IMG/VR virus record: IMGVR_UViG_3300025160_000007
Coordinates: 1-60,672 of that record
Direction: 5' to 3' (one strand)
Source of the DNA: a virus
Lineage: Duplodnaviria; Caudoviricetes
DNA length: 60,672 nt
The translations under genes were made by a program, and so were the position numbers. The stretch's first letter is position 1; each line of letters starts with the position of its first letter. Below the pieces are notes generated by a model. The model was given only the letters and a program-made list of their open reading frames with translations. It had not been told where the DNA came from and did not search any database. Positions 3,882 through 59,367 of this stretch are shown piece after piece.

Positions 3882-3932
3882 GGTAGTACCTCCAACAAAT
3901 TATTTAGTAACTTCGTTCTTTACTATACTTAT

Positions 3933-3961: not shown

Positions 3962-4044
3962 TACTTTTTATAAAAATAATTAAAGTTTTTTTATATATTG
4001 CAATTAACCGCAGATTATTATAAAATATTAAATAAAAGAAAGGG

Positions 4045-6706: not shown

Positions 6707-6729
6707 AAAGTAAAAGGGGATGAGTTTGA

Positions 6730-7383
6730 ATGATAACAATGTTGATTCCATCAAGAATAGATTCAAATAGGCTATATGGGAAGGCTTTAATGCGGATAAA
6801 CGGAAGGGAACTTCTTGATTATGTATTAGAGGCTTGTTTAAAGGCTCATTTAATTGATTTTATTGGAATAATAACAACAGATAGAAACGATGATTTTGAT
6901 ATTTATGAAAAATTCTGCAGTAAAATTTTTGTTTATAGATGTCCGGAGCCTGATTATAATAATGTGTTGTTAAGATATGATTTAGCAATTAGGGAAATTG
7001 AACAAACAATCGGCAAAAAATTAAAGCATATTATGAGAATAACAAATGACTGCCCGCTGTTGTACTATAAACCACACATAATAGATAAGGTAATAGCTTA
7101 TCATTTAAAGGATAATAATGATTTTACCCATAATCGAGGGCTTCTTGGATATCCCAGTGGATTTGATGTTGAGATAATGAAGAGGGAGGCAATTAAAAAA
7201 GCTTTAAAGGCCGCAACTCAAGAAGAGCGAGAACATGTAACTTTGCACATAAAAAACAACCCAGAATTATTTAAAATTGGAGAGGTAAATGCTCCATTTA
7301 TAATGGAAAATAGAAAATATAGTATAGATACAAAGGAAGAGCTAGAGAATATTAAGAAAATAATTGAACTGTTGGAGGTTTAA
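6730..7383 (+). CDS. SpsF/PseF-like cytidylyltransferase
   Basis: SRIDSNRLYGKAL, RITNDCPL, PSGFDVE, EREHVT. Confidence 0.8.
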   Translation: MITMLIPSRIDSNRLYGKALMRINGRELLDYVLEACLKAHLIDFIGIITTDRNDDFDIYEKFCSKIFVYRCPEPDYNNVLLRYDLAIREIEQTIGKKLKHIMRITNDCPLLYYKPHIIDKVIAYHLKDNNDFTHNRGLLGYPSGFDVEIMKREAIKKALKAATQEEREHVTLHIKNNPELFKIGEVNAPFIMENRKYSIDTKEELENIKKIIELLEV

Positions 7384-7384
7384 A

Positions 7385-7984
7385 ATGGGATTAGGTTTTG
7401 ATGTTAAATTAGGCGAAATGAATATACATACATGCGAATTAGTAAGACGATGGAGAAATACCATGGAGGGTGTCTTAAGAACTCCTTTTTTATTAACTGC
7501 GGAAATGCAAGCAGATTTTTATAATAAAACTGTATGTAATAGATTTTCTAATGCTAGATTTTGGAGCGTTAATGCAAAGGCTATCACAGAAATAAATGAT
7601 ACAAATGAAAAGGCTCTCGCTGCTGAAGGCGGAGATGGTCGATTTGTTGGCATGGTTGGTTTGATAAATATAGAATGGGAGAATAGTTTGGCTGAGATTT
7701 CTATGTTATTAAATCCAGATTGTCACGGGCTTGGAATTGGAGACAAGGCTTTTGATTTATTATTGGAAAAAGGATTCGACCATTTAAACTTAGCCAGTAT
7801 ATATGGCGAATGTTACGAATGTAACAGTGCAATTCCTTTTTGGGAGAAACAAATTGATAAGTATAAGGCATATAAAACAAAGTTACCTAACAAAAAATAT
7901 TATAAGGGTGAACACCATGATTCAATTTATTTTAACTTTGATTTTGTCAATTACTTAGGGTATAAGAGACCAGTTCATCCTTAA
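7385..7984 (+). CDS. GNAT N-acetyltransferase (PseH-like)
   Basis: VRRWRN, VGMVGLINIEW, HGLGIG acetyl-CoA motif, RimJ/RimL-type layout. Confidence 0.75.
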   Translation: MGLGFDVKLGEMNIHTCELVRRWRNTMEGVLRTPFLLTAEMQADFYNKTVCNRFSNARFWSVNAKAITEINDTNEKALAAEGGDGRFVGMVGLINIEWENSLAEISMLLNPDCHGLGIGDKAFDLLLEKGFDHLNLASIYGECYECNSAIPFWEKQIDKYKAYKTKLPNKKYYKGEHHDSIYFNFDFVNYLGYKRPVHP

Positions 7985-8013
7985 TTGAAAATCTTTAAGA
8001 AAAGAGGCGTTTT

Positions 8014-9339
8014 ATGAATCTTTTAGTAATAAGTAACCAGTCAGAGGCCATTGAATTAATGAAAAGATATAAGGGTAATTATACTTTTATTAGTAAGAGA
8101 AAACTAACAAAAGAGCAGCTGCCAGCTGGTTATAAAATAGGAGCAAATGTTAGAACATATGCCCACACAAGAATGAAAAAGGGATTATATTATACAAAAA
8201 TTAACTGGAATAATATCCCTCCATTGGATAGCCAGACTATTGAAGCCCTTTCATATTGCGAAGCAGAAACTCTTAAGATGTTTGAGAGAATTGGGAAGGT
8301 TAACGCTCAATTGTATTCAAGCCGAAAACAACATTATATGAACCATCTAAGGTATTGGAATTATATTCTTGATGTTAATAAGATAGATGTTTTTTATAGA
8401 TGTGCTCCTCCGCATGAGGGCTATGATAATGTAATTTATCATTTATGTCTTTATAAAAAGATTCCAATTTATATGTTTTACCAGCTACATCCCAAGCTTG
8501 CATATTTCGCGAGGAATGTAAGGGAGCCGCTGCCTAACATCACAGATATTTATAAAAAAATGTTAGACGATTATAAAGACAACAACAATAAAGAGGAAAT
8601 ATTAAGAAAGGGTCTGAGGACTTTGATGGATGAACATTGGAACAAAAAGATTCCAAGCGTTTCTCCAACAATTATCCCTGATAAAAAAAAGGGAACACAA
8701 AAAAACTTATTAAAACTTCATAAGGGCCTGTTAAAATTTTATGCATCTCAATGTGTAAAACCAAACTATAACAAGCCATATATTTATTTTCCTTTACATT
8801 ATCAATATGAGGCAACAACGTGTCCCATGGGCGGGATATACAGCGACCAACTATTAGCAATTGAACTATTATCAAGAGCTGGCATTCAGGTATATGTAAA
8901 AGAACATCCAAGGATGTCAAAAAACCGGTCTCTGGCTTATTATAAAAAATTATTATCAATGCCGAATGTTAGTCTTGTTTCAATTAAGGCCGACAATTAT
9001 GCTTTGATAGATAATAGCTTTTGTGTTTCAACAATAACTGGAACGGCTGGGTGGCAGGCTATATTACGCGGGAAAACTTGTCTAATGTTTGGATTTAATT
9101 TTTATCAATATGCACCCGGGTGTTTCCAGATAAAAACTTTGGAAGATTTAAAGCCAGCTATTGATGGAATAAAAAGTTATGTTCCTAATAGAGCCCATAT
9201 TGAAATATTTTTAAAAAGTATGGAGGAGTTCCTTTTTGACCATAATACTATTTCAAATATGACGGCATTTTCAAATGAATTAAAAAAACTTGAAAAAGAA
9301 AGGTTGATGAACGATGAAGAATCAAAGCGACATATTTAA
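8014..9339 (+). CDS. Capsule polysaccharide biosynthesis (KpsS-like) protein, putative ulosonic acid transferase
   Basis: YFPLHYQYEAT, VKEHP, TITGTAGWQAILRGK. Confidence 0.7.
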   Translation: MNLLVISNQSEAIELMKRYKGNYTFISKRKLTKEQLPAGYKIGANVRTYAHTRMKKGLYYTKINWNNIPPLDSQTIEALSYCEAETLKMFERIGKVNAQLYSSRKQHYMNHLRYWNYILDVNKIDVFYRCAPPHEGYDNVIYHLCLYKKIPIYMFYQLHPKLAYFARNVREPLPNITDIYKKMLDDYKDNNNKEEILRKGLRTLMDEHWNKKIPSVSPTIIPDKKKGTQKNLLKLHKGLLKFYASQCVKPNYNKPYIYFPLHYQYEATTCPMGGIYSDQLLAIELLSRAGIQVYVKEHPRMSKNRSLAYYKKLLSMPNVSLVSIKADNYALIDNSFCVSTITGTAGWQAILRGKTCLMFGFNFYQYAPGCFQIKTLEDLKPAIDGIKSYVPNRAHIEIFLKSMEEFLFDHNTISNMTAFSNELKKLEKERLMNDEESKRHI

Positions 9340-9961
9340 TTCAACAATAGAGCTGACACATGAATTTTGGGAAAACCCTGGTAATAGAAACAGGCCAAAG
9401 GATTATGCGGCTCATAAAGAAAGAAGTAAATTTTTAATTAATAATGTATTTAGCAAGTTAAAAACTAAAAAAGACGCTCCAATATTAGAGATTGGATGTA
9501 ACTGTGGAAGGAATTTAAAATTTCTTCAAGATGATGGTTATACTAATTTAACCGGGATTGATATAAGTCAAGAGGCTATTGACTACAGTAAAAAGGTTTA
9601 CCCAGAATTAAATGCTTATTTAATAGTTTCTCCAATAGAAGAGATTATTGACTCGTTCAAACTTAAGAGTTTTGATGTTGTTTTTACTTTCGCGGTTTTA
9701 ATGCATATCCACCAAGACAGCGAATGGGTGTTCAATAGAATAAAAAGGATATCAAAAAAATATATAGTAATTTGTGAAGACCAGAGAAGAGATTATAAAA
9801 AAATATTTGAATCAGGCCAAAATAAATTTATCCAAGTTGAAGAGATTCAAACAGGCAAATTTATCAAGCTTGATAAAAAATATATTACAAGAATATTTGA
9901 GAGAAAAATAAAAGAATCCCCTTCTTTAGAATTTAGTGGAGTATCTCATGACCTCGATTGA
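9314..9961 (+). CDS. Class I SAM-dependent methyltransferase
   Basis: ILEIGCNCGRNL, GIDIS, FDVVFTFAVLMHI. Confidence 0.85.
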   Translation: MKNQSDIFNSTIELTHEFWENPGNRNRPKDYAAHKERSKFLINNVFSKLKTKKDAPILEIGCNCGRNLKFLQDDGYTNLTGIDISQEAIDYSKKVYPELNAYLIVSPIEEIIDSFKLKSFDVVFTFAVLMHIHQDSEWVFNRIKRISKKYIVICEDQRRDYKKIFESGQNKFIQVEEIQTGKFIKLDKKYITRIFERKIKESPSLEFSGVSHDLD

Positions 9962-10649
9962 TGTTGTTTACTTAGCTGGTGGGGAGGGTATCCGAGCAGG
10001 TTTGGGATACCCTAAGCAATTTTACAGATTGGGTGGGAAACCTATATTAGTTCATGGGCTTGAGACACTTAGAAAAATTGATATGATTGGGGACATATTA
10101 ATTCCATGTGCCGATGAAGGTTATATATATAAAATATGTAAAGATTTTAATATCCAAGGAATTAGACCCGTCTGCGCGGGAGCGACTCGGCAGACATCTG
10201 TTTATAACGGAATAACAGAGACCTTAACGCCGTTCGTTATAATAATGGAAGCCGTCAGGCCTTTTATAACCGAGGAGCTAATAAGAAAGGTTATAGAAAC
10301 GGATGGAGAAGCCGTTACTCCGGTTAAGAAAAATATTTCAACGCCGCTCTCAATAATTGAGGTTGGTGACCAAATATTTGTTCATCCTTTATCAAGAGGC
10401 TCTGTGGGAGAAGTTCAAATGCCTCAAAAGTTTAATAATAAGTTATTGCTCCGAGCCCATAGAAGGGCATTGAGTAATAACAGAATAGACTATTCCGATG
10501 ATGTTGCTTTGTTGCATTCAGAATTTGGGAAACATGCGAGATATGTTGATGGAATAGAAGAAAATATAAAAGTAACAAGCCCTTTGGATTTAGTTGTTGC
10601 TGAAGCTATATATAACTCTTTGCATGGAGTAAAGGGAGAGAGAGAGTAA
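9948..10649 (+). CDS. IspD/TarI-family cytidylyltransferase
   Basis: LAGGEGIR...PKQF, GATRQTSVYNG, EAVRPF, QMPQKF, NIKVTSPLDL. Confidence 0.85.
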   Translation: MTSIDVVYLAGGEGIRAGLGYPKQFYRLGGKPILVHGLETLRKIDMIGDILIPCADEGYIYKICKDFNIQGIRPVCAGATRQTSVYNGITETLTPFVIIMEAVRPFITEELIRKVIETDGEAVTPVKKNISTPLSIIEVGDQIFVHPLSRGSVGEVQMPQKFNNKLLLRAHRRALSNNRIDYSDDVALLHSEFGKHARYVDGIEENIKVTSPLDLVVAEAIYNSLHGVKGERE

Positions 10650-10656
10650 CTGAATT

Positions 10657-11310
10657 ATGGATAAAACAATAATGATAACAGGCTCAAGCAGAGGCCTTGG
10701 TGCACAAATAGCAAAGGATGCCTGTAAAAAAGGATATTACTATTATGGGATATCTAGATTTAACGATTTGGACGTTGTTAACTATGATGATATTAAAAAT
10801 TATATATTAGGCTTTTATGATAGTTATTATGATGAACACTCAAGTGGAAGGCCGGTCGCCTTAATAAATAACGCGGGGATATGTGTTCCAGAAAATATCT
10901 TTGAATTAAATATTGAAAATTTTATTGAAACGTTTAGAGTTAATCTTTTTGGTCTTGTAAATTGTTGTAATCTATATGCAAAACTTTGTAAGGATTTCTC
11001 AATTAAAGGGAAAATAATCAATATTGCAAGCACTGCGGGTTTGGGTGCTCGACCGGGTCGGTCTGCCTATTCAGCATCCAAAGCAGCGGTTATAAACTTT
11101 AGTTTATCTTTAACCGAAGAGCTAAGGCCTTATGGTCTTAAAGTATATTGTGTGGCTCCGGGAGCCTTTGAAAGCGATATGAGGAGGGAAATAGCTCCGG
11201 ACGATGATTTTGAAAAAATGTTGAAGCCTGACAAGGTTGCTAAGTTTATTTTAAGTTTAGTTGAGGATGGAGACCTGCTGGATGGTCAAATTATAAAAAT
11301 TATAAAATGA
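10657..11310 (+). CDS. Short-chain dehydrogenase/reductase (Bcs1-type ribulose-5-P reductase candidate)
   Basis: TGSSRGLG, NNAG, YSASK; adjacent to IspD-like gene. Confidence 0.8.
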   Translation: MDKTIMITGSSRGLGAQIAKDACKKGYYYYGISRFNDLDVVNYDDIKNYILGFYDSYYDEHSSGRPVALINNAGICVPENIFELNIENFIETFRVNLFGLVNCCNLYAKLCKDFSIKGKIINIASTAGLGARPGRSAYSASKAAVINFSLSLTEELRPYGLKVYCVAPGAFESDMRREIAPDDDFEKMLKPDKVAKFILSLVEDGDLLDGQIIKIIK

Positions 11311-11320
11311 GGATAAAACA

Positions 11321-11473
11321 ATGAATCTAACAAAGATAAAAAGAATGAAAGAATGCAAGGTATGTGGATGTTATACAGATGAAAAATGTGAAATCTGTAT
11401 AACATGCCAAAGTAAACAATGGCAAAAAAATTTAGGATATGGAAAGGAAGATAAGAAAAATGAAACTAAATGA
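11321..11473 (+). CDS. Small Cys-rich protein (50 aa)
   Basis: Manual translation: CKVC...CEICITC; GAGGA upstream. Confidence 0.55.
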   Translation: MNLTKIKRMKECKVCGCYTDEKCEICITCQSKQWQKNLGYGKEDKKNETK

Positions 11474-11870
11474 TTTATTACCGTTAATACACGATGAGCA
11501 GGTTTTTGAAATTAAAATAGGAGATAAACTTATTGACAACTTAAAAAAAATGGCTCTTGTTGAAGAGATAGAATTCCCAGAGGGTGACATGGAGATTGAT
11601 AAAATTAGAATTTTAGGCGACGAATACACGTTCGTTATCCATATAGAGCTTGTTAATTCAGGATTTGAGAAAGAGCTTAGCGACCTTATAAACAGACACT
11701 CTCTTGAAAATGGGAGCGATACTCCTGATTTTGTTCTTGCAAAATATTTATCTGATTGCTTAACAACTTTTAACAAGGCAATAGAGAAAAGAGACGAATG
11801 GTATAAATTTAAACCATGGGGAAGATTAACAAACTTAGAAAATCCCGAAAGGAACGGAAATGATTCATAA
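11439..11870 (+). CDS. Hypothetical phage protein
   Basis: C-terminal LINRHSLENGSDTPDFVLAKYL motif. Confidence 0.7.
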   Translation: MERKIRKMKLNDLLPLIHDEQVFEIKIGDKLIDNLKKMALVEEIEFPEGDMEIDKIRILGDEYTFVIHIELVNSGFEKELSDLINRHSLENGSDTPDFVLAKYLSDCLTTFNKAIEKRDEWYKFKPWGRLTNLENPERNGNDS

Positions 11871-13197
11871 TATATTCTTTTATAATGATTCAAAAAGAGG
11901 GATAACAATAGAAGGCTTATATTTTCCTTCTTTTGAACTTATAGCTTATAAATTAGAAACTGGGTCATCAATACTAAGGGAAGTTAGAAAACATAAAAAT
12001 ATCTTTTATGGGAATGAAGAATGTTTAAGAAAAAGACTTGAAATTGGAGGGAAGAAAATGCTTGTAAATATTATGAATAAAGCCCACTGGACAATTAATG
12101 TGGGCCGATATTCATTTAAACCTTATAAAGAGACGTCAATTAATGTGGGGTCTTGTGACTCTGAATTTAAAGCAATTAGAAGTAATAAAAATCTTAGAGT
12201 GGGGAAAACAAACAACGAACACTATATTAAAAGCCACAAGTTAGTAAAAGGCCTTAAGTATAACTTTATTTTTGATGTAATATCTCAACACGCGGGAGCC
12301 GCTTATATTCATTCAATTGAGGCTCTGGCGAATCCAATTAAAGAAAGTCTGCCTAAAAAAGAGGCTGCTTTCTTTAATCGACCAGCTCCAGGGCCAAAGG
12401 AAAAAGGACTAAACTGCAGATTTTTTAACAGTGCGAGAATTGCCGAACACGGAAAATGTCCAGTCGGGCCTAAGGATGTGTTCATATCTCACGGAATTGG
12501 AGATAAAGACTACTGGACTGCTAAAAAAATAAAAGCGTTTAATTATGCTTTTGTGCCTGGTCCAACTTGGGAAGCCAGAATGCGGGCGACTGGCTATAAA
12601 GGGGAGATTTTTGTTGTTGGCTATACAAAACTCGACCCAATATTCCAAGGCAAATATAATAAAACAGAAAGAGATAAACCTTATATTGCATGGCTTCCAA
12701 CTCATGGTTATGCGAATAAACACAGGGGACGGTCTAGTTATCCCCAATTTTTACAGGATATTCCGCAGATTCCTTTGGACGTATATGACATTTGTCAAGG
12801 AATGCATCCAACAACAAAGCTTCATTCATGTCAAAAGCAAGTTCCAACCATGCAGGAATTAGTAGATGCGGATGTTGTAATAGCAGATGCCGGCTCGACG
12901 TTGTACGAGGCGTGGGCTATTGGAAAGCCTGTAATATTCCCAGATTGGATTTGTAAAAAAGATGTTCTGGGCCATTTTGGGCCTGACAACCTAGAATACC
13001 AGATTTATAAAGAGGGCATTGGATATCATGCAAAGGATATGGCCCATATGCTTCAATTAATAGAAATTGCCTTAAGAGATGGAATGGGAGAAAGAGAAAA
13101 AGAGTTTATTGAAGGAATCTTCCCGGGATCATTAAGGGGAGTTGCCGGAAAGACCGCGGCAGATTCTTTGATTGAAATAAGTAATACATTTAATTAA
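11860..13197 (+). CDS. TagF/TarL-like CDP-polyol phosphotransferase (GT-B) with duplicated N-terminal module
   Basis: ISHGIGDK, VGYTKLD, AWLPTH, ADVVIADAGSTLYEAWAIGKPVIF. Confidence 0.7.
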   Translation: MIHNIFFYNDSKRGITIEGLYFPSFELIAYKLETGSSILREVRKHKNIFYGNEECLRKRLEIGGKKMLVNIMNKAHWTINVGRYSFKPYKETSINVGSCDSEFKAIRSNKNLRVGKTNNEHYIKSHKLVKGLKYNFIFDVISQHAGAAYIHSIEALANPIKESLPKKEAAFFNRPAPGPKEKGLNCRFFNSARIAEHGKCPVGPKDVFISHGIGDKDYWTAKKIKAFNYAFVPGPTWEARMRATGYKGEIFVVGYTKLDPIFQGKYNKTERDKPYIAWLPTHGYANKHRGRSSYPQFLQDIPQIPLDVYDICQGMHPTTKLHSCQKQVPTMQELVDADVVIADAGSTLYEAWAIGKPVIFPDWICKKDVLGHFGPDNLEYQIYKEGIGYHAKDMAHMLQLIEIALRDGMGEREKEFIEGIFPGSLRGVAGKTAADSLIEISNTFN

Positions 13198-15363: not shown

Positions 15364-16389
15364 TTGGGTAATAATGAAATTATAAAAAATAGCTTAGATA
15401 AAATATTGATGTATTATGGAGCAATTCCTCCAAGAGGAACAGGCAATTGGACATGCTTAAGTTCGAGACATAAAAATCCGCGAGATAATTTATCGGTTAA
15501 AGGAGACATCTGTTGTTGTCACTGCGGGATTAAAGGGGATTCTTTCGCCGTTATTGGTGAACTAGAAGGCCTCGGCCATAAAGATAAAGAGCAGTTCCTT
15601 TTAATTGTAAAAAAAGCATTTGAAATTTTAAACATGCCTGTTGAATGCAAAAAACCCAACAGGCATGAACAATATGAAAGCAAAAAAACAAAGAAACAAG
15701 ACGGAAATACAATTAATGAATTAACTCAAATTATATCAGAAGTTTCTAAGAAAGCAAAAACAATGAACTATATTTATTTTAAAACAAGAGGGATAATAAA
15801 TCCCTATCTCTTTAAAAAATATAGACTTATTGTTGGAAATCCAAAAAGGATATTCCCATCAAAACTTTTACCCAATTTAACAAATATTTGGGCCTATGAA
15901 TATATAATCCCAATTATAAAAGATGGCAGAGTTGTAAATTGTATCTTAAGAAGGAACGACAACAAGAGCAATTCGAACAATAAAACATTAAATTTAAAAG
16001 GGCTCCCTGTGGAGTTCTTTAATGGAGATTACCTGAAGGAAACAAACTTAAAATATATATTTATATGCGAGGGTGTATTTGATGCCCTTACGTTTTTAAA
16101 TTTTGGGCATAAAGCCTTGTCAATTAATTCAATAGTAATGATTAATAAACTATTCCAAGAGGTTAAAAACAATAAAGAAGGGCTAAAAAATACTATATTC
16201 TTTATAGCTTTTGACCAAGATGAAAAAGGCTGGGGACAAAAAGCTGCAGCAGAATTAATAAACAAATTAAAAAGTATTAATATCAAAGCTAAAAGCCTAA
16301 AGTTAAAGGAATACAAAGACATAAATGAATATTATTGCAATAATCAAAAAAGTTTCTTAGAAAGTATTGACAAAGTAATACCCATATAG
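15364..16389 (+). CDS. DNA primase (Zn-binding + Toprim)
   Basis: Cys/His N-terminus; ICEGVFDAL, AFDQDEKG, KDINE. Confidence 0.85.
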   Translation: MGNNEIIKNSLDKILMYYGAIPPRGTGNWTCLSSRHKNPRDNLSVKGDICCCHCGIKGDSFAVIGELEGLGHKDKEQFLLIVKKAFEILNMPVECKKPNRHEQYESKKTKKQDGNTINELTQIISEVSKKAKTMNYIYFKTRGIINPYLFKKYRLIVGNPKRIFPSKLLPNLTNIWAYEYIIPIIKDGRVVNCILRRNDNKSNSNNKTLNLKGLPVEFFNGDYLKETNLKYIFICEGVFDALTFLNFGHKALSINSIVMINKLFQEVKNNKEGLKNTIFFIAFDQDEKGWGQKAAAELINKLKSINIKAKSLKLKEYKDINEYYCNNQKSFLESIDKVIPI

Positions 16390-16395
16390 TATTAT
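16367..16395 (+). promoter_or_regulatory. sigmaA promoter with GTAATAC box
   Basis: TTGACA-17-TATTAT; box 2 nt after the -35. Confidence 0.75.
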
Positions 16396-16442
16396 GTGAG
16401 CATAGTAAATAAAATAAATTAAAATATTAGGAGGAACTAAAA

Positions 16443-17132
16443 ATGAAAAATATAATTAAAGTATTAGGATGGTTGTTATTCCCATACATAATGGTGGGGA
16501 TTTTGGTTGGAAGGAAAAGCGAGAGTAAATTAGCCGGATTCATGTCAGGGTTTTTTGTATTTATTCTTGTATATGCTGTAATAATAGAGCCTTATGGCGA
16601 AAACTCAACAACGTATAATACAGGGACACCAATTAGCGTCTCGGCAAAAGATATCCCCGAAAGTAAAAAGACGTTACAACCGTCACCAAGTCAATCAGTT
16701 AAACCTTCAATTAAGCCATCACCGAGCCCAACAGTTAAAACAACATCAGTCAAGCCATCAGTTAAACCATCACCAAGCCCAACAGTTAAGCCTTCTGTTA
16801 AACCATCAGTTAAGCCATCACCAAAAATTATTGTAAAAAAAGAAACGCTTTCTCAAAAAAATGCAGTAAAAGCAGCAGAAAACTATATTAGGATTATGCC
16901 TTTCTCAAGAGATGGCCTAATAAAACAGTTAAAATATGAAGGTTACTCGACAGCAGACGCGACTTATGCGGTTGATAAGCTTAAGATTGATTATAATAAA
17001 CAGGCTCTAAAAGCGGCAGAAACGTACCTCGACATGATGGCTTTCTCAAGGAGTGGATTAATAAAACAGTTAAAATATGAGGGCTATACAACTAAGCAGG
17101 CCACATATGCAGTTGATAAGGTTGGTTTATAG
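16443..17132 (+). CDS. Ltp-family surface protein (superinfection exclusion-like) with Pro/Ser/Thr/Lys linker
   Basis: Two N-terminal TM helices, (S/T)VKPS repeats, two A.Y...M.FSR.GLIKQLKYEGY...A.YAVDK domains. Confidence 0.85.
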   Translation: MKNIIKVLGWLLFPYIMVGILVGRKSESKLAGFMSGFFVFILVYAVIIEPYGENSTTYNTGTPISVSAKDIPESKKTLQPSPSQSVKPSIKPSPSPTVKTTSVKPSVKPSPSPTVKPSVKPSVKPSPKIIVKKETLSQKNAVKAAENYIRIMPFSRDGLIKQLKYEGYSTADATYAVDKLKIDYNKQALKAAETYLDMMAFSRSGLIKQLKYEGYTTKQATYAVDKVGL

Positions 17133-32398: not shown

Positions 32399-32573
32399 GT
32401 AAAAAGCAACGGTTAAAGGAAAACTTAAGATGTTTTTCTTTAACTGCTTGCTTTTTAATTTTATTGTGTTATAATCTCTTTAGGTAATATTTAAGGTCTC
32501 GTGAGGGGACATTGTATTTATACAATCTTTGTATTACCTAAAGAAATGGACATTGAAAAAAGAAGTTGCTTTG

Positions 32574-32678
32574 TATAGTTTGGTTTGAATCGCAGCCGAA
32601 CCAAACTATATAATCATAGTTGTATAGAAGTCTTGTAAATCCGAGCTGCGAAATTTGGATTTATGGGACTTCTTTTTA
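32574..32678 (+). ncRNA. Kissing-loop double hairpin RNA element, copy A
   Basis: Stem 32574-87/32597-610, loop AATCGCAGC; stem 32626-44/32655-73 (Watson-Crick and G-U only), loop GCTGCGAAAT; 7-nt loop complementarity; U-tract. Confidence 0.65.
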
Positions 32679-32697
32679 TATAGGGAGGAAATTTAAA

Positions 32698-33045
32698 ATG
32701 AATATTGAAAAATATGAAGCATTAAAACAAGCTATTCCCAGCAAATATCAAATTAAATTAAGATTTGATAATGGGAAACTGGGCCTTGATGTATTTAAGG
32801 GTAGCAAATTTTTAAAGCCAACACAGCGAACCGGAATGAAAACAACATATTTCAAATTATATGGAATTTATGAAGGGAAATTAAAAGGATATGCAGTCTC
32901 TAAGTATGAATTGTTTTGTTTTATATCTGGTGTTGATGTGGTTCAGCAGGAGGTTAGCCTAGAATATATTAATAAGAATATTGATAAAATCAAAAAATAT
33001 GCTAGGAAGGAATTGATTAAAAATCGATTAAGGGAAACATCTTAA
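32698..33045 (+). CDS. Hypothetical protein
   Basis: AGGGAGG SD before ATG at 32698. Confidence 0.7.
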   Translation: MNIEKYEALKQAIPSKYQIKLRFDNGKLGLDVFKGSKFLKPTQRTGMKTTYFKLYGIYEGKLKGYAVSKYELFCFISGVDVVQQEVSLEYINKNIDKIKKYARKELIKNRLRETS

Positions 33046-40381: not shown

Positions 40382-40410
40382 AAAAATCCCTCCATTAACT
40401 TATTACTCAT

Positions 40411-40496
40411 ATTATACTATATAAGTAATACTAAATCAAATAATTTAAATTATTTTTATAAAAAGTATTGACTAAGTAATACCTTCATGGTATAAT
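40411..40496. promoter_or_regulatory. Divergent promoter pair, each with a GTAWTAC box
   Basis: Minus strand TTGATT-17-TATAAT (40439-40411); plus strand TTGACT-17-TATAAT (40468-40496). Confidence 0.8.
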
Positions 40497-40531
40497 ATGA
40501 GTATAGTAAAGAACGGAGGGAGGTGGACGAA

Positions 40532-43115: not shown

Positions 43116-43484
43116 ATGATAGGCATGGATATTAAAAATTTTAATCTAATAAAAAATATCAAAGATAATAAAGTTTTATCAATAAGTGTGGGAAGTATAT
43201 TATTAACCTTAATAGTATTAGGATTTATGGGGTATTTAGACGACTTGATTGCCGGAATTTTTGCCGTTATAGTCATTTTATTGTTAGGTCTATTTGGAGC
43301 CTTAGCAACATTAATCCCCATAGTTTTTGGCCTTGGATTATATTGTTTACCAACAATTGTCGCCTTAATTAGGAAGCATGCCAATAAAAGCCCGATAATA
43401 CTTGTGAACCTATTATTAGGCTGGACGCTTATTGGATGGGCTGTGGCCCTAATTTGGGCCTTCACGGATAACGCTGCCGACTAG
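43116..43484 (+). CDS. Superinfection immunity (Imm-like) membrane protein
   Basis: LYCLPTIVALIRKH.N...ILVNLLLGWTLIGWAVALIWA. Confidence 0.85.
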   Translation: MIGMDIKNFNLIKNIKDNKVLSISVGSILLTLIVLGFMGYLDDLIAGIFAVIVILLLGLFGALATLIPIVFGLGLYCLPTIVALIRKHANKSPIILVNLLLGWTLIGWAVALIWAFTDNAAD

Positions 43485-46071: not shown

Positions 46072-46413
46072 TTAGCTAAAACTTTTTATAAAAAATAGTA
46101 TTTCTTCAGCTTGGGTTTTATATAATTCTATCTGCAAATTTATCTCGCCAGCCGCTTCGCTAATTAATTCTAAATACTTTTTATTTATGTTTTGTATTCC
46201 AATTTCAATATATAAATCTTTGGCGGCTGCTGCTAAATACAACTCTTTCCCGCCGGTTTTTAAATGGTTAGGCCAGTCAATTGCGCCTGTTTCGTTTATA
46301 AATTCAGCTATTTCTAATAAGTTCTCTACTGTCGCGCTGTTTGGCTTTACTTCTACATCGTTGTAACTTTCAATTACTAAACTTTTAATTCCTTTTATTA
46401 ATTCCTTATTCAT
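46072..46413 (-). CDS. Hypothetical protein, paralog of 3346-3537
   Basis: Shared DWP motif region; GGAGG SD. Confidence 0.75.
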   Translation of the reverse strand: MNKELIKGIKSLVIESYNDVEVKPNSATVENLLEIAEFINETGAIDWPNHLKTGGKELYLAAAAKDLYIEIGIQNINKKYLELISEAAGEINLQIELYKTQAEEILFFIKSFS

Positions 46414-46465
46414 GGTAGTACCTCCAACAAATTTAATTTAGTAGGTTATTAACTACTATACACAC

Positions 46466-46494
46466 ATTATACTATGTAAGTAATACTAAGTCAA
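46466..46494 (-). promoter_or_regulatory. sigmaA promoter with GTATTAC box
   Basis: TTGACT-17-TATAAT. Confidence 0.8.
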
Positions 46495-46550
46495 TACCTA
46501 TTTAATAATATATTTGAATAAAAAAAAGGCCGTGTGGCCTTAATAATTAT

Positions 46551-51854: not shown

Positions 51855-52277
51855 GGTTAGAATTATGAACAATTTCTTGCAAACACTTGAAAGTTAACAA
51901 ATAGTTCAGATGATGTTTTAATTTTAACACAAAACATCAAAATAAACTATTGCATTATATTTGCTGACGAGGTATAATGTGAGCATAGTAATTAATTATT
52001 ATTTTTGAAGGGAGACAAAAATGAAAAAGTTATTTTGCGAAGTTTGTGAAGACCAAATGAATTCAATTTTTGATTACGACTCAGACACTTTAAACCCAAA
52101 GACCATTGAAGTACATCAATGTACAAACAAAGACTGCAAACAACACAAAATTTTAAAACACTACTGGATAAACAAAAATCGGGCGATTTTCTTAGGAACC
52201 ACTGGGTCGGCAGAGCCAAAGTTTTAAATAAACCGGGAGGCATTTCCGGTTTATAATAAAGGGAGGGAGAGCTTAAG

Positions 52278-52945: not shown

Positions 52946-53223
52946 ATAAATGCGGGAGAGTATTTAAAAGATAAAAATTGCAGTATTTGCGGAATTTCAA
53001 ATGATGAGCATTTAAAAAAATATAATCAAAGGCTTCATATTCATCATAAAAAAAATACAGGAAGACACTACATAGAGAACGGCAAAAAACCTATCCATGA
53101 TGATTTAGCTATTCTCTGTGTCTCTTGTCATACATCGCATGCCGTAAAAAACAAACAGCATTCTAGTTTTGATAATTCAAAAGCCTTATTAAAAGGCTGG
53201 GAAACGAGGAGGAGTAAAAATGA
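52946..53223 (+). pseudogene. HNH endonuclease-like frame without a canonical start
   Basis: CSIC...LHIHH...LAILCVSCH; in-frame TGA at 52916 and no ATG/GTG/TTG start. Confidence 0.55.
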
Positions 53224-54863
53224 AATTCGAAAAAGTTAAACTAAAAGACTTGATTTTTTCAACTTATAATCCAAGGAAAAAACTAACACCGAAAGACGAC
53301 GAATATAAAAAAATAAAAGCAAGCATTAATGAGTTTGGATATGTTGACCCGATTATTGTTAATTCAAATAACGTAATTGTGGGTGGATTCCAGCGCGGAC
53401 AGGTACTGAAAGAACTGGGATATAAGGAAATAGACATTGTTAGGATTGACATTTCTCCAGAGAAAGAAAAGGCTCTTAATATTGCTCTAAACAAAATAGA
53501 TTGTGGCTATCAAATAAAGGCCCAAATTATCTGGGCCAAACAACACTTCGCGTTGTCGCGTGGCAACTTTAACTGGCAGCATGAACCTTGTCAGCCGGCT
53601 GGAACTATTATATCAACACCAAGTGGGCAGATTCCAATTGAAAAATTAAAAGATGGAGATAGAGTTATAACATATAATAGCTATTCATCTTCAATTATTG
53701 GCAAAAGAAAGGGCTTTAAAATTAAAACAAGTAAAAGATTTTATAATGGTGATATGTTTAATATTTTTGTAGGGAACAAGAATACTAAAACAACAGACAA
53801 CCATAAATTTACAACTAGATTTTCAAATGATTGTGATTCTAAATATGGTATCTATTTAATGAAAAAAGGCGAATGGTGGAGGATTGGAATAACTAAATTG
53901 TTTAATTCTCGTGGTTTTGGCTTAACTGTAAGATTAGGAAACGAAAAAGCAGATGCGGCATGGTTGTTAAAAATTTGCAATAAAAAAAACGAGGCAGAAG
54001 TTTATGAACACATGTTATCTTGCAAGTATGGAATCCCAACAACTATATGGGAACTGGCAAGACCAAGAAAAGGCATTCCAGAAAATTTAAATTGGAGAAG
54101 CGAAGAACAAATAAAGTGGATTTATTCAATGTTGGATTTAGATTTAATGTTTTTAAATGTTTTAAAAATGTTGAAAGATTTTAATAAAAGAATTGAATTT
54201 CCTATGGTAACAAAAGAAGAAACGCAATATAAACCATTTGGAAGAAATAAAACTAAATTAATTAATGCATGTAATTTATTTGAGGATATCATGTGCATAC
54301 CAGTTCCTCATAATAGTGGGGATTCATTTGATTGGATTAAAATTTCAAAAATAAAAATTTCTAAATTTGAAGATTTTGTCTATTCTCTTGATGTTGATAA
54401 ATATGAGCATTATATTGCAGATGGAATTGTTACTCATAACTGTTTATATGTTGTAAAGAATAAAAAGAAACATAACTGGCAGGGAGTTAACAATGCTTCG
54501 ACCATCTGGAATATAAAAAATAACAATAGTTTTGGAAATTCAGATAAGGAACAAACATATGGGCATGGAACACAAAAGCCCATCGAATGTATGTTAAAGC
54601 CTATAAACTATAATTCATGTCCGGGCCAGGCAGTCTATGACCCATTTTTAGGTTCGGGAACTTCTTTAATTGCATCGGAACAGTCGGGCCGAATTTGTTA
54701 TGGCATGGAGATTGATCCCATCTATTGTGATGTAATCTTACAAAGATATATTGATTTTGTAAACAACGATAGTTTATTCTTAATTGAAAATAATAAAAAA
54801 GTTAATCTAAGGGATATCCCTAAATATAAAAAAATAGTTGGTGATGGAAATGCCAAAAAGTAA
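53220..54863 (+). CDS. ParB-like domain fused to a partial DNA methyltransferase, with intein
   Basis: YNPRK...FGYVDPIIV..GGFQR; IIWAK, WQHEP, HGTQKP, DPFLGSGT; no DPPY motif. Confidence 0.85.
   Translation: MKFEKVKLKDLIFSTYNPRKKLTPKDDEYKKIKASINEFGYVDPIIVNSNNVIVGGFQRGQVLKELGYKEIDIVRIDISPEKEKALNIALNKIDCGYQIKAQIIWAKQHFALSRGNFNWQHEPCQPAGTIISTPSGQIPIEKLKDGDRVITYNSYSSSIIGKRKGFKIKTSKRFYNGDMFNIFVGNKNTKTTDNHKFTTRFSNDCDSKYGIYLMKKGEWWRIGITKLFNSRGFGLTVRLGNEKADAAWLLKICNKKNEAEVYEHMLSCKYGIPTTIWELARPRKGIPENLNWRSEEQIKWIYSMLDLDLMFLNVLKMLKDFNKRIEFPMVTKEETQYKPFGRNKTKLINACNLFEDIMCIPVPHNSGDSFDWIKISKIKISKFEDFVYSLDVDKYEHYIADGIVTHNCLYVVKNKKKHNWQGVNNASTIWNIKNNNSFGNSDKEQTYGHGTQKPIECMLKPINYNSCPGQAVYDPFLGSGTSLIASEQSGRICYGMEIDPIYCDVILQRYIDFVNNDSLFLIENNKKVNLRDIPKYKKIVGDGNAKK
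53589..54440 (+). mobile_element. Intein (284 aa) with GIY-YIG-like central domain
   Basis: Starts CQPAGT...IPIEKLKDGDRV; TTDNHKF; YGIYLM...WRIG; ends VYSLDV...YIADGIVTHN then Cys+1. Confidence 0.9.
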
Positions 54864-55422
54864 ATATCCTACGCATATCGAACCAAATTTAAAATTAATA
54901 ACAAGTTGGAGAGAAGCTGGAAAAACGGAAGAGCAAATCGCGGAGAAATTAAAAGTTGCCTGTAGTACTTTAAGGGAACATAAAAACATGTATCCGGCAT
55001 TGATGGCGGCTCTTAGCACCTCAAAGGAAAAATTAGTTGCTAATTTAAAGAAGAGCCTATGGGAAGAGGCTCTTGGTTATGAATATACCGAGGTTCAAGA
55101 ATCGGCAGAAATAATAACAGGCAAAGATGAGGACGATAATCCAAACAAAAAACCTAAAAAGTTACGAAGAACAAAAATAACTAAAAAATTTAGAGGAGTT
55201 CCTAATCTGTTAATTTTTGCATTATGCAACTTAGCACCAGATGAATTTAAAAGAATTGATAAAGAAGCCATGAAAGAGATTGAAGATAAAATAGCCGAAG
55301 ACCGAAGACAGGCGCAAAGTTACACGGATGAAGCTATTCGCAGGGCCTATAATAGCTTATATGAGGACGTGACGAAAACAATTAAAGAGAAAAAGGCGGC
55401 GGCCGATAATGATTCAACTTGA
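54838..55422 (+). CDS. Terminase small subunit (HTH type)
   Basis: GKTEEQIAEKLKVACSTL, ALGYEYTE, IFALCN; overlaps the large subunit start. Confidence 0.7.
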   Translation: MVMEMPKSKYPTHIEPNLKLITSWREAGKTEEQIAEKLKVACSTLREHKNMYPALMAALSTSKEKLVANLKKSLWEEALGYEYTEVQESAEIITGKDEDDNPNKKPKKLRRTKITKKFRGVPNLLIFALCNLAPDEFKRIDKEAMKEIEDKIAEDRRQAQSYTDEAIRRAYNSLYEDVTKTIKEKKAAADNDST

Positions 55423-56782
55423 GCGAGCGTTAAATGTTAGGGACGTCGGGTATACCTTCGAAAAGATAGCACCAAAAACAAAAGAGCATCTCGCGGTTTA
55501 TTGCTCTGTTGTTTTAAATAATAGGTTCCCTCATCCAGCCTATTGCCCTGACCATGATTCCCCTTTGGATGCAATTTGGGCAGCCTATGCGGAAATTGAA
55601 GATTTTAGTATTTGGTATGCCATGAGAGGCTCGGGGAAAACATATGACCTCTCTATTTTGGCATGGCTTGAAAGTCTTTTTAAACCGCAGTGTGGAACGA
55701 CGGTTCTAGGAGGCTCGCTTGAACAAAGTACAAAAGCCGTGGGCTATTTAGATTATTTATGGAGAATGCCAGGCGTCCCGCATGAGATGTTAATAAATGG
55801 GAGTGTTGCTGGAAGAGGCTTTAAACTTAATAATGGCTCATGGGTTCAGGCTTTGGCAGCCTCTCCAAAATCTGTCAGAGGCCCTCATCCACAAAAGTTG
55901 CGTTTAGACGAACTCGACGAAATGGACAGGGTTATTTATGACGCGGCTCTGGGCCAGCCAAAGTCGAACCATGGAATAAAGGATAATGTAGTTATATCTT
56001 CAACGCTTCATCATGCCTTTGGATTAATGACAGAAGTTATAGATGAACGGGAAAAAATCGGAGCCCGCCTTTACAAATGGTGTGTTGAAGAGGTTCGGGA
56101 ACCTCGCGGATTTTGGACAAATGATGAAATTGGAAGAAAACTAAAACAATTAACAACGGCCATGTGGGATTCGGAGTACTTATTAAAAAGACCAATGGTT
56201 GGAGACACTGTCTTTGATTTTGAGTCTGTTGATAGGGCATATAGAAGAGGATTTAATATCTTATTTGAAAAATATCCGGCCGAAGGATGTATTGACTGGG
56301 GATATACGTGCACAGTTTTACACGTTATCCAGGATTTTAAAGAATATATAAATGTCCCTGAGTCTTATTCATGGGAATATACCGAGTTAACAGAAAGATG
56401 TAAATTAATTGTTGATATTTGCATTGAAAAAAATATAAGAGTTATATATTGTGACTCTAATCCAAAGGATAGCCACATGACCTTAAGAAAGATAATAAAA
56501 AAGAAAAGGGCTCCAGTTACCGTCATTCCCATTGCTTTTAATGTATGGAAAGACATCGCGATTAATGTTGTTAGATTCTATCTTGAAAGGGATTTAATGA
56601 ACATAAGAGACAAGGTATTCCAAGACAAGATGAAAAAGTACCATTATAAAAACGTTGATTTAGAGATAATAGATAAGGTTGATGACCATTATCCCGATGC
56701 TTTAATTGCTTGGGGAGCATCTAGATGGAGAATCCTTGGAGACATAACTCCACCAAGGAATGCCGAAGAGTTAAACGGTTAA
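55409..56782 (+). CDS. terL: Terminase large subunit
   Basis: RGSGKT Walker A, RG...LDE Walker B, SST, IDWG, DDHYPDAL. Confidence 0.9.
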   Translation: MIQLERALNVRDVGYTFEKIAPKTKEHLAVYCSVVLNNRFPHPAYCPDHDSPLDAIWAAYAEIEDFSIWYAMRGSGKTYDLSILAWLESLFKPQCGTTVLGGSLEQSTKAVGYLDYLWRMPGVPHEMLINGSVAGRGFKLNNGSWVQALAASPKSVRGPHPQKLRLDELDEMDRVIYDAALGQPKSNHGIKDNVVISSTLHHAFGLMTEVIDEREKIGARLYKWCVEEVREPRGFWTNDEIGRKLKQLTTAMWDSEYLLKRPMVGDTVFDFESVDRAYRRGFNILFEKYPAEGCIDWGYTCTVLHVIQDFKEYINVPESYSWEYTELTERCKLIVDICIEKNIRVIYCDSNPKDSHMTLRKIIKKKRAPVTVIPIAFNVWKDIAINVVRFYLERDLMNIRDKVFQDKMKKYHYKNVDLEIIDKVDDHYPDALIAWGASRWRILGDITPPRNAEELNG

Positions 56783-56808
56783 GGGAAACATCAAGAGTTT
56801 ATCCTTAA

Positions 56809-56930
56809 TTGATTATTATCTTTTTTGTGTTATAATTAACTAAGTTGTTTTTTTGATATATTCATGATTTATTTTGTTGATTGTTTACTTGGGGAAGTGG
56901 CGCGTGACACCATACACGCGCCATTCCTTT
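56809..56930 (+). ncRNA. Candidate small RNA unit (promoter, ~50-nt U-rich segment, GC hairpin)
   Basis: TTGATT-16-(TG)TATAAT; hairpin 56892-56929. Confidence 0.45.
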
Positions 56931-56965
56931 GTTATAAAGGGTTTATGTATATGATAAAAAAAACC

Positions 56966-56994
56966 TTGACGGATAAAAAGTATTTTGTTATAAT
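56966..56994 (+). promoter_or_regulatory. sigmaA promoter with extended -10
   Basis: TTGACG-17-TATAAT with TG. Confidence 0.85.
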
Positions 56995-57001
56995 CGTTCT
57001 T

Positions 57002-57153
57002 GCATGGTAGTTTTTCAAGTTTTAGAACCTTCAACAAATTTGTTACGCCGCACTTTTGAAATGCATTCCGGCCATTTCAAAAGTGCGGTGGGTAACTGCA
57101 TAAAGACCTATAAATATTCGAGCCGGAAATCTAGGATATTTATAGGTCTTTTT
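57002..57153 (+). ncRNA. Candidate antisense RNA: bipartite 5' segment plus kissing-loop double hairpin (copy B)
   Basis: CATGGTAGT + ACCTTCAACAAATTT match 3879-3901 and 46411-46434; stems 57048-63/57073-88 and 57102-19/57134-51; loops TTCCGGC/GCCGGAA. Confidence 0.65.
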
Positions 57154-57179
57154 AATATAAAAGAATGGAGAAATAAATT

Positions 57180-57665
57180 ATGAATAATTTTGAATTTAAA
57201 CACAATGGGGAAAGTTTGTGGTACTCTAGGGCTGTGGCGGTTGTTGGCCTTATTTTAGCTCACGACTATATTTGGGATTGGTATGTATTGGCAAATAAAA
57301 GAGGTAAAAATACTCCTGATTTTCAGGGATATTGGAGCCTTCCATGTGGTTACTTGGATTTTAACGAGACGTGTGAAGAGGCAATTATTAGAGAGATTTT
57401 TGAAGAGACTGGCCTTAAGATTCAAAAGGACAGGTATTTGGATTTAATTGGTGTGGATAGCATCCCTGTCGGAAAGCAAAACGTAACGATTCGATTTAAA
57501 TGTAATATGATGGAGGATATAACTGCTTTAAAATTAACCAACAAAAATGCAGATGACGGCGAAGTTGATGAAGCTAAGTGGATAAACTTAAGAGATGTTA
57601 AGTCTTTTAGATGGGCCTTTAATCACTTAGAACTTATCTCTACTTATTGGGAATCAGATTTATAA
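57180..57665 (+). CDS. Nudix hydrolase
   Basis: LPCGYLDFNETCEEAIIREIFEETGL Nudix box; AFNH. Confidence 0.9.
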   Translation: MNNFEFKHNGESLWYSRAVAVVGLILAHDYIWDWYVLANKRGKNTPDFQGYWSLPCGYLDFNETCEEAIIREIFEETGLKIQKDRYLDLIGVDSIPVGKQNVTIRFKCNMMEDITALKLTNKNADDGEVDEAKWINLRDVKSFRWAFNHLELISTYWESDL

Positions 57666-57873: not shown

Positions 57874-59367
57874 TTGTTTTTACAAGAAAACTCAAACTTT
57901 CCACCTGACGACTGGACATATTGGTATGATAAATATGACGAATATTGCAGCTGGTATTCGGGCGACCCGAACGAATTATTAAGATTTTATTCTACAAAAA
58001 AGCCGATAATTTATTCTCAGAACATATTTTGGCAAAAAATAAGAGAGACTGAGGACGACAATGCTATTCATATGCCAGCCGCTGGAGATATTTCTGCAAT
58101 GTCATCTAATTTATTGTTTTCTGAAAAACCAGAATTTAACTTTGAGAAAAAAACTGTTGGAGGCGAACGGCTGAGTCTATTCATAGAAGATAATAGTTTT
58201 TATAGTTTGCTATTAGAGGCTGCGGAAATGGCTGCCGCCTTGAGTGGAGTCTTCTTAAAGTTGGAAATAGACACCCGGTTATCAAAGACTCCAATAATTA
58301 GCGTTATAACTCCTCTCGCGGCTTTCCCGACATTTATAAGGGGAAGGCTGTGGGAAGTTTTATTTTATAGGGAAGTTAAAACAGAAAAAGGCGGGACGGT
58401 TGTATATAGGCTCTTTGAAAATAGAAAGAGAACTGCAGACGGATTTACAATTGAATACAAACTTTATAAGGGAACGAAGGACAAAACTGGAAAAGTTATA
58501 GATATTAATGCCATTGAAGAAACGGCTTCATTGGGATTAATTGATGTTGTTTATAATAAGGTTGATGGGCTTGGAGTTGTTTATGTTCCCAATATGCGGC
58601 CCAATAGATTACAACCGGGTTCCCCTCTTGGGATAAATGATTATGCCGGAGTAATTGGCATGATGGATTCCCTTGATTTATCTTATAGCTCATGGATTAG
58701 AGACATTGAGCTGGGGATGGGACAGATTTTTGTTGATGAAGAATTGCTTCAGAGAGAGGAGACTTCAATTTTTGGAACAGAAAAAAGTGTGTTAAACAAA
58801 TTTTCTAAATTCCAAAAATGCTTCATGAAGTTGAATCTTTCAAGCCAAAGAATGTCTGGAACAAATACAAAGCCAATTGAAAGCGTTCAATTCGAAATGA
58901 GGACAGATGAACATTTAAGAACCTGCGAATATCTATTTAGTCAAATCGTATCACAGTGCGGATATTCGCCATCAGGCTTTGGCCTTGACACCGATGGGAA
59001 CGCCGAAAGTGGCAGGGCCTTAAGAATGAAAGAAAGAAAAAGTTTATTAACCCGGGAAAAGAAATCAAGTTATTGGCTGCAGGCAATAAACAAACTTTTT
59101 ATGCAGGTTCAGCAACTAGACAATGCTGCTTTTACAATTTTTTATAATTTAGAGGATGTAAAAACAGAGCTGCAGGATTCAATTATTGTCGACTCGGGCG
59201 AGTTATCCGAAACAATAAGAAATCTAGACCAAGCAATGGCAATCTCGACGCTTCTAAAGGTTAAAATGCAACATCCAGATTGGACAGATGAAGATGTCGA
59301 TGCCGAGGTAAAAAGAATAAACGATGAAAAAGGCGTTGAGAAAAGCGTCTTTGACATAGAAACTTAA
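57874..59367 (+). CDS. Portal protein (SPP1/A118-like)
   Basis: Between terminase and minor capsid; YVPN, LGINDY, GYSPSGFG, HPDWTDEDVDAEVKRI. Confidence 0.88.
   Translation: MFLQENSNFPPDDWTYWYDKYDEYCSWYSGDPNELLRFYSTKKPIIYSQNIFWQKIRETEDDNAIHMPAAGDISAMSSNLLFSEKPEFNFEKKTVGGERLSLFIEDNSFYSLLLEAAEMAAALSGVFLKLEIDTRLSKTPIISVITPLAAFPTFIRGRLWEVLFYREVKTEKGGTVVYRLFENRKRTADGFTIEYKLYKGTKDKTGKVIDINAIEETASLGLIDVVYNKVDGLGVVYVPNMRPNRLQPGSPLGINDYAGVIGMMDSLDLSYSSWIRDIELGMGQIFVDEELLQREETSIFGTEKSVLNKFSKFQKCFMKLNLSSQRMSGTNTKPIESVQFEMRTDEHLRTCEYLFSQIVSQCGYSPSGFGLDTDGNAESGRALRMKERKSLLTREKKSSYWLQAINKLFMQVQQLDNAAFTIFYNLEDVKTELQDSIIVDSGELSETIRNLDQAMAISTLLKVKMQHPDWTDEDVDAEVKRINDEKGVEKSVFDIET

Follow-up and report, generated by a model that had tools for sequence, protein, structure and literature searches.

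Can a phage silence two of its own genes with an RNA made from the leader of a third? The question is raised by a 398-nt gap between the terL gene and a NUDIX hydrolase gene in the window, by which we mean the whole 60,672-nt stretch of DNA analyzed here. Right after a promoter-like site, this gap carries two short segments, called the 5′ and 3′ arms below, that together read as the antisense of the start regions of two distant genes (Table 1). An initial annotation, made from the letters alone, had proposed a trans-acting small RNA with a guide-like 5′ part on a structured scaffold.

The phage and its locus

The window comprises the complete genome of an uncultured phage, assembled as one contig whose ends overlap by 99 nt. 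Downstream of the NUDIX gene lie a 49-aa ORF and then the portal gene (57874-59367). In a relative with 61% TerL identity (L011), a 496-aa ORF begins 7 nt past terL, and we therefore regard the RNA unit plus the NUDIX gene as inserted, in the window's own lineage, into the packaging operon. That lineage has no sequenced cultured relative in the GenBank phage collection, since a tblastn search with TerL (E 1e-5) against 50,697 GenBank phage records gave no match. A blastn search of GenBank phages with the intergenic region likewise returned none. The host is probably an SD-rich, low-GC bacterium; a sequence-pattern scan of genome contigs gave just three chance matches, all in unrelated MAGs, and pointed to no host.

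Other features of the genome were recorded along the way. A ParB-like/DNA methyltransferase fusion is encoded at 53220-54863, with PHROG matches restricted to residues 1-94 and 407-535. Contigs from runs X12 and X15 join 53588 to 54441 and so skip 852 nt of this gene, which fits an intein-like insert missing from relatives. A long series of + strand genes (4045-13197) adjoins the second target cassette and opens with a PseB-like polysaccharide biosynthesis protein (PF02719, E 2e-94). The genome also encodes an Ltp-like superinfection-exclusion protein (16443-17132) and an immunity-type protein (43116-43484; PHROGs 4980 and 1039). Among the phage proteins scanned, which make up part of the proteome, none was recognized as an integrase.

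Table 1. Features of the candidate RNA locus, its two targets and the leader modules (window positions unless a contig is named)
Feature	Position	Strand	Remarks
TerL	55409-56782		PHROG terminase large subunit
RNA promoter (predicted)	56966-56994	+	TTGACG-17-TGnTATAAT; 11/12 consensus, TG present
5′ arm	57003-57011	+	CATGGTAGT; antisense of ATG and SD-ATG spacer of both targets
Linker, 15 nt	57012-57026	+	TTTTCAAGTTTTAGA; no counterpart in targets; 22 nt in relatives
3′ arm	57027-57041	+	ACCTTCAACAAATTT; antisense of SD and upstream leader, one G-U
Leader module copy B	57042-57157	+	Fold and covariance model R1, 135.9 bits
Copy B hairpin 1 (H1)	57046-57063 / 57073-57090		Loop 57064-57072
Copy B hairpin 2 (H2)	57102-57119 / 57134-57151		Loop 57120-57133; U-run 57149-57153
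Copy B loop-loop pairing	57066-57072 with 57122-57128
SD (GGAG) of NUDIX gene	57167-57170	+
NUDIX hydrolase gene	57180-57665	+	Directly 3′ of leader module; Pfam PF00293 (E 7e-15), PHROG 1198
Target site 1	46411-46434	-	SD and ATG of gene 46072-46413 (113 aa, orphan)
Promoter of target cassette 1	46464-46496 (family repeat 46459-46496)	-	Repeated promoter family
Target site 2	3879-3901	-	SD and ATG of gene 3597-3881 (94 aa, orphan)
Promoter of target cassette 2	3928-3963 (family repeat 3926-3963)	-	Same repeated promoter family
63-aa gene	3346-3537		Second gene of target cassette 2, after 3597-3881
Leader module copy A	32565-32680	+	R1 98.8 bits; 5′ of 115-aa gene 32698-33045
Module copy, L073	7583-7696
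Module copy, L045	1501-1612
Module copy, L074	76-194
Module copy, L049	4376-4487	-
Module copy, L081	1908-2018	-
Module copy, L086	1012-1122	-
Module copy, L089	2677-2782
Module copy, L061	1425-1544	-

Antisense arms match two start regions

The bipartite antisense of the SD and start codon of two genes, as first described, proved exact in its letters and coordinates. The + strand reads CATGGTAGTACCTCCAACAAATTT at 46411-46434, and 3879-3901 is identical minus the final T. Arms and target sites all lie on the + strand, where they read as the antisense of an SD (GGAGG) plus ATG on the minus strand. Complementarity to the two genes is exact over 9 + 15 nt and spans both SD and ATG, with a single wobble: T57031, where the target sites have C, gives the G-U pair inside GGAGG to which the initial annotation had also pointed. 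By our own count, 14 of the 24 possible transitions would keep pairing just as this C-to-T change does, so the substitution carries little information.

The match is specific within the window. Searched with up to three mismatches, the 23-mer finds only the two target sites (two matches, 0.00 expected; 0 of 100 shuffles). The 14-mer ACCTYCAACAAATT occurs without mismatch at exactly three sites, 3888, 46420 and 57027; with up to two mismatches it yields 6 matches against 2.57 expected, and only exact 14-mer matches can therefore count as evidence.

Duplex energies set the same two genes apart when they are compared with all leaders and with shuffled controls, as the initial annotation had suggested doing. 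The predicted duplexes with the 5′ part of the RNA reach -30.7 kcal/mol for target 1 and -29.1 kcal/mol for target 2, the best and second-best values in the genome. The 949 candidate start regions average -11.6 (sd 3.5), and the next value after the two targets, -24.9, belongs to an internal start; if only the 146 start regions of the longest ORFs are considered, the runner-up stands at -21.4 kcal/mol. When the 44 nt were shuffled with dinucleotides preserved, the best target reached -29.1 in 1 of 200 cases and the second-best in 0 of 200. Within related contigs, duplexes between the RNA and the start of that contig's own target-2 homolog come to -29.2 and -33.0 kcal/mol.

The predicted RNA has an unstructured tail on a stable body

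From the near-consensus promoter, which had been noticed at first reading and is invariant in three related contigs (L001, L002 and L003), we infer a transcript; promoter spacing would place its start at ~57001-57004. A search of sequencing runs turned up no RNA run covering this DNA. Prediction assigns essentially no structure to the first 44 nt (MFE -1.5 kcal/mol, z +1.29; 186 of 200 shuffles fold at least as well). The whole 156-nt RNA is predicted at -55.4 kcal/mol (z -7.3), a stability that none of 200 shuffles attains. Its 3′ part, called structured in the initial annotation, is predicted to be very stable and forms two long hairpins followed by a U-run. Our reading of the second hairpin as a terminator follows from its 18-bp stem and five U; the terminator scan did not list it, as its loop is 14 nt long and the limit of the scan is 8. 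When the full-length RNA is folded, weak pairing links 57007-57012, in the 5′ arm, to 57094-57099, in the linker that joins the two hairpins. The 3′ arm, complementary to the SD, stays free in the centroid fold, and the arms stop 4 nt short of H1.

Several other identities for this segment were considered and rejected. No Rfam family reached its gathering score anywhere in the window and a permissive scan of 56700-57400 (E up to 10) gave no C4 match, which rules out a known Rfam family. An inner promoter within the 5′ extension did not appear in the promoter scan, and the 7-nt indel seen in relatives would alter its spacing. A casual look for a CRISPR-like guide noticed no repeats or nuclease nearby.

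A second promoter-like site (TTGATT-16-TATAAT with TG) lies upstream, within 56809-56930, together with a hairpin and U-rich tail at 56896-56925; the bin around it (56800-56899) is 100% conserved in relatives. Part of this unit, 56859-56874, is antisense to the NUDIX start region 57171-57186 over 16 nt with one G-U (blast E 0.12). This match may be due to chance: it is weaker in the relatives, whose NUDIX leader differs.

The targets head paralogous orphan cassettes

Both target ORFs translate cleanly, into 113 and 94 aa. The proteins are acidic (pI 4.7 and 5.8, respectively), with maximum 19-aa hydropathy windows of 0.83 and 0.45. These are not the short hydrophobic membrane peptides of type I toxin-antitoxin systems, and we rejected that class. 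Searches of Pfam, PHROGs and the ESM Atlas and a word-index homology search yielded no usable match for either protein. A scan for relatives of target 1 found no match; target 2 has an 89% homolog (P0004), encoded on a 34.7-kb contig. The two cassettes are nonetheless related to each other, as the 113-aa protein of cassette 1 and the 63-aa protein of cassette 2 are paralogs (blastp, 36% identity over 50 aa, E 2.5e-6), and their shared start region is therefore common by descent.

Each cassette consists of a family promoter and a homologous leader of ~45 nt ahead of its genes, and both leaders are predicted to be weakly structured. Besides the two cassette promoters (Table 1), the family has members at 16346-16412 (+), 40404-40439 (-), 40447-40513 (+) and 51929-51995 (+), which also drive the Ltp-like exclusion gene and a divergent gene pair. 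The members are near-identical, with conserved bases between and after the hexamers that probably form an operator. Small acidic orphan proteins behind strong, operator-bearing promoters of their own have the profile of dose-limited host-takeover or anti-defence genes. If the candidate RNA does silence them, it singles out both cassettes as worth study.

A kissing-loop leader module forms the scaffold

The 3′ part of the predicted RNA recurs in the window. Copies A and B of the module align across hairpin 1, linker, hairpin 2, U-run, SD and ATG, and the common layout is H1, an AUAGU-like linker and a terminator-like H2 with U-run, the two loops being complementary, followed by SD and ATG. A covariance model built from the two copies (R1) recovers only those two in the window at E < 1e-20, other + strand hits having E >= 0.28. 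It found three further copies in two of the three whole records of relatives and five new ones among 46 loci fetched with the hairpin-1 pattern, for a total of 10 distinct copies, two in the window and eight in other viral contigs. An SD and ATG stand within a few bases 3′ of every copy, and the genes that follow are unrelated (NUDIX, a PseB-like dehydratase and several unknowns). In one relative (G002), the module lies directly 5′ of the PseB-like gene. The H1 palindrome pattern of copy B matched, beyond the same three IMG/VR contigs that carry the RNA region, only unrelated 28-nt terminators.

Base changes across the copies support the structure. In the alignment of 11 rows (the 10 distinct copies plus a variant of copy B from L014), 94.4% of cells pair, against 68.7% in shuffles (0 of 500), and 36 of 43 pairs have changed on both sides. 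The 7-bp loop-loop helix did not enter the model used for aligning. It is 93.3% paired, 5 of its 7 pairs have changed on both sides, and at least six different complementary loop pairs are represented. The module is new in that it has no counterpart in Rfam 15, and its covarying loop-loop structure around a terminator-like hairpin makes the family of interest in itself.

The position of the promoters bears directly on the 5′ arms. In 6 of the 10 copies, a promoter-like site with the best or equal-best score ends 2-6 nt before the module, and the transcript would accordingly begin at the base of H1. Promoter and module are separated by 47 nt in copy B, 89 nt in copy A and 107 nt in L061; for G003, no promoter-like site was found within its 75 nt of upstream sequence. 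The 89-nt extension of copy A is structured and unlike that of copy B, and an antisense scan with it, and with the unit 56843-56895, gave no outstanding real start site. The unstructured 44-nt extension with antisense arms is thus confined to copy B. Given that transcripts would begin at the H1 base in six of the ten copies, this extension is a lineage-specific addition that needs its own explanation.

These results do not sustain the initial view of a guide held by a dedicated, undescribed scaffold. With 10 copies before unrelated genes, mostly starting at the promoter, the scaffold is a general promoter-proximal cis-leader and not a guide holder; six copies have no 5′ part at all, and the extension of copy A has no outstanding target. 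The module itself could be an attenuator awaiting an antiterminator, a stabilizer of the mRNA 5′ end, or both.

The intergenic block is conserved and the target leaders are mosaic

A TerL scan of IMG/VR gave 13 loci, three of them with the intergenic region, and these three contigs, with 93% TerL identity, carry the RNA region. A scan of metagenomes returned at least three loci: the same phage, an already known contig and one 70% relative. A scan with NUDIX found no match, and patterns for the arms and for the start region retrieved only the same three IMG/VR contigs. Among metagenome records, run X15 record 11 spans 56758-57382 with 7 extra letters at 57016/57017, run X12 record 3 spans 55018-57247, and run X20 record 16 spans 56602-57053 and 57051-57652 with ~42 extra letters between.

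The intergenic region is far more conserved than the silent sites of its neighbors. Over 378 nt, the window differs from L001 and L003 by five substitutions, all within 56908-56953 and none in promoter, arms or module. Four-fold degenerate sites have changed at 44 of 153 positions in terL (28.8%) and 51 of 160 in the portal gene (31.9%). The extension differs in relatives just by the 7-nt indel that lengthens the linker from 15 to 22 nt, and L002/L014 show one more change, from G-U to G-C in hairpin 1. In 100-nt bins, identity is 95-100% for the intergenic region, 81-97% for terL and 64-82% for the NUDIX gene. At the neutral rate, 24 unchanged nucleotides in the arms would have a probability of 0.7^24, or ~2e-4 by our own arithmetic. 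The arms are no better conserved than the remaining intergenic sequence, so their constancy is no specific evidence, and the sequences point to strong constraint on, or recent homogenization of, the whole block.

On the target side, a 20-nt core of the target-2 start region, TTGTTGGAGGTACTACCATG, is kept in three of three related contigs, two of which also carry the RNA, and the leader upstream of this core varies by indels. In L016 and L017 the leader of the target-2 homolog is of the target-1 type with 2 extra nt; positions 160-245 of L016 correspond to 46411-46496 of the window, which places a target-2 gene behind a target-1-type leader. Promoter-leader pieces have thus moved between cassettes by recombination, and the leaders are mosaic. 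A third variant (L018 1369-1515, from the same contig as L014) has an 85-nt insert in the leader and an ORF cut to ~23 codons. The insert holds a second, diverged SD-start-like segment, and 10 consecutive nt of the leader are complementary to the 22-nt linker in the RNA of that contig. The arms do not track changes at the far end of the target site, and uninterrupted pairing shrinks to 22 nt in L016 and to 20 nt in L018. Arms and start-region motif co-occur in the window's lineage, and both are missing from two complete relatives, G001 and G002; a 30-nt match in G001 was rejected as lying inside a coding region.

A trans-acting leader RNA and its alternatives

Our leading explanation, built on sequence and held with about even confidence, is that a terminated leader RNA uses its 5′ extension to block, in trans, the translation of two paralogous orphan cassettes. 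A strong promoter of constitutive type would drive a ~150-nt RNA that mostly ends at the hairpin and U-run of 57102-57153 and would represent the terminated form of the NUDIX leader. Its 3′ two-thirds would be the kissing-loop module that this phage group puts before many genes, and its first ~40 nt an unstructured add-on. The 3′ arm would pair with the SD region and upstream leader of the mRNAs of both target genes, and the 5′ arm with the spacer and AUG, in a duplex of 23-24 bp with a 15-nt bulge and one G-U. Such a duplex would exclude the ribosome and perhaps create an RNase III substrate. In this way, two cassettes with separate promoters, both encoding small acidic orphan proteins, would be silenced post-transcriptionally.

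The chief competitor, which we consider possible and distinctly less probable, is a recombination scar. A piece of cassette leader, from SD to ATG, would have been caught inverted between promoter and module while the NUDIX cassette was assembled or moved, and the RNA would be only a cis leader or attenuator of NUDIX with no function in trans. Relatives do have leaders that are mosaic between cassettes, and the module is a cis element found in 10 copies before unrelated genes. Most of these copies work without a 5′ extension, a point that weighs against the trans role. Compared with the targets, the arms show one insertion and one substitution, which would suit a copy in decay. Compensatory covariation between arms and targets is absent among the four sequences, in all of which the arms are identical; this lack of covariation speaks for a scar and against pairing in trans. 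The uniform conservation of the intergenic block is explicable by recent exchange and, with leaders recombining, homogenization could mimic selection. The predicted pairing of part of the 5′ arm in the full-length fold is a further point against the trans role.

A scar accounts less well for what was kept and where it lies. Homology is limited to the SD-ATG segment: just the 24 nt relevant to ribosome binding are present, and their flanks have no promoter or other leader homology. The arms stand exactly at the predicted +1, in the orientation that would yield antisense RNA. Conservation drops at the gene borders, to 89-91% identity in the 56500 and 56600 bins and 79% in the 57200 bin, a pattern that fits selection better than a random exchange tract. 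The 44-nt single-stranded tail departs from the usual design, with the module at +1, and nothing in it is recognizable beyond the antisense of a start region. Also in favor of a role in trans are the accessibility of this tail, the high stability of the RNA body, the existence of two targets and the strong conservation.

Alternatively, the pairing may be functional and serve another main purpose, which we judge rather unlikely. The RNA might block the same cassettes of related superinfecting phages, as a form of immunity or exclusion, or the target mRNAs might act on the NUDIX leader, for instance on its stability or processing. The conserved target start region among related phages, the Ltp-like and immunity-type genes, and a read-through NUDIX mRNA, which would bear the same arms, speak for such readings. 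Against them, there is no sign of a temperate phage, with no integrase among the proteins scanned, and the arms stop 4 nt before H1, so that pairing would not open the module.

It is highly improbable that the three same-strand copies of a 24-bp sequence and the perfect palindrome AACAAATTTGTT at 57032-57043 mark a DNA-level site for a recombinase or operator, or that the region encodes protein, since the similarity covers exactly SD, spacer and ATG, the third copy is split by 15 or 22 nt, the palindrome is missing from both targets, the 59-aa + strand ORF starting in the 5′ arm ends after 20 codons in L001 owing to the 7-nt indel, and the reading on the minus strand amounts to just 5 codons.

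If a trans-acting leader RNA is indeed at work, the locus offers a clean, sequence-readable case of a phage RNA that regulates its own genes in trans, in a lineage without a cultured relative, and of a cis-leader turned into a trans-regulator by the addition of 40 nt. A long shot beyond this is that the kissing-loop leader serves as a portable, very stable platform whose 5′ end receives short antisense copies of start regions and is retargeted in this way. It would then be a programmable silencer of the phage's own moron cassettes or those of competing relatives, an RNA-based heteroimmunity with no dedicated protein. A general "guide plus scaffold" system is not supported.

Comparison with known systems

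The candidate resembles two kinds of described regulator. The c4 RNA, which sets the heteroimmunity of phages P1 and P7, is encoded upstream of its target, an antirepressor, in the same transcription unit, and Rfam includes a C4 family. PMC12197685 describes c4 as a phage RNA with more than one complementary segment, which pairs around the ribosome-binding site of its target mRNA and blocks translation. Here, too, two separate segments (9 nt and 15 nt, 15 nt apart) are complementary to the ribosome-binding region of the targets. Unlike c4, the locus has no match to the C4 covariance model, and its arms lie in a linear, unstructured 5′ tail, whereas those of c4 are in loops. Its targets are 10.6 kb and 7.4 kb away on the opposite strand, the latter across the junction of the circle, and the two are not antirepressors but proteins without a Pfam or PHROG match or a usable Atlas hit.

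Phage P22 makes its sar RNA from the DNA strand opposite the gene that it targets. According to PMC12197685, this small antisense RNA prevents the start of translation on a phage mRNA whose gene is also under repressor control. The RNA gene considered here differs in being distant from both of its targets.

Among bacterial RNAs, the closest parallels are leaders with a second role. In SreA and SreB of Listeria (PMC8079631), a terminated leader doubles as a trans RNA that masks the SD of a distant mRNA; leader-derived small RNAs of this kind include rnTrpL, from an attenuator (PMC6614838), and a SAM-I example (10.1101/803072). Like these, the candidate combines promoter, structured leader and predicted terminator directly 5′ of a gene on the same strand, a layout that recurs in the 10 module copies. 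Unlike SreA and rnTrpL, it is phage-borne, and its leader is a kissing-loop module in place of a known riboswitch or ribosome-dependent attenuator.

In phage lambda (PR′-tR′, 6S RNA) and HK022 (put RNA), a strong promoter, a structured RNA and a terminator likewise precede phage genes, and the short RNA is the default product. We know of no role for the lambda 6S and HK022 put RNAs as antisense regulators. The candidate shows no sequence relation to either, and a Q-like or N-like factor was not identified in this phage.

We put the odds at about even that the candidate works in the manner of c4 and SreA, being homologous to neither. It is a candidate phage antisense regulator carried on an undescribed leader module, and the scaffold family is the more novel object.
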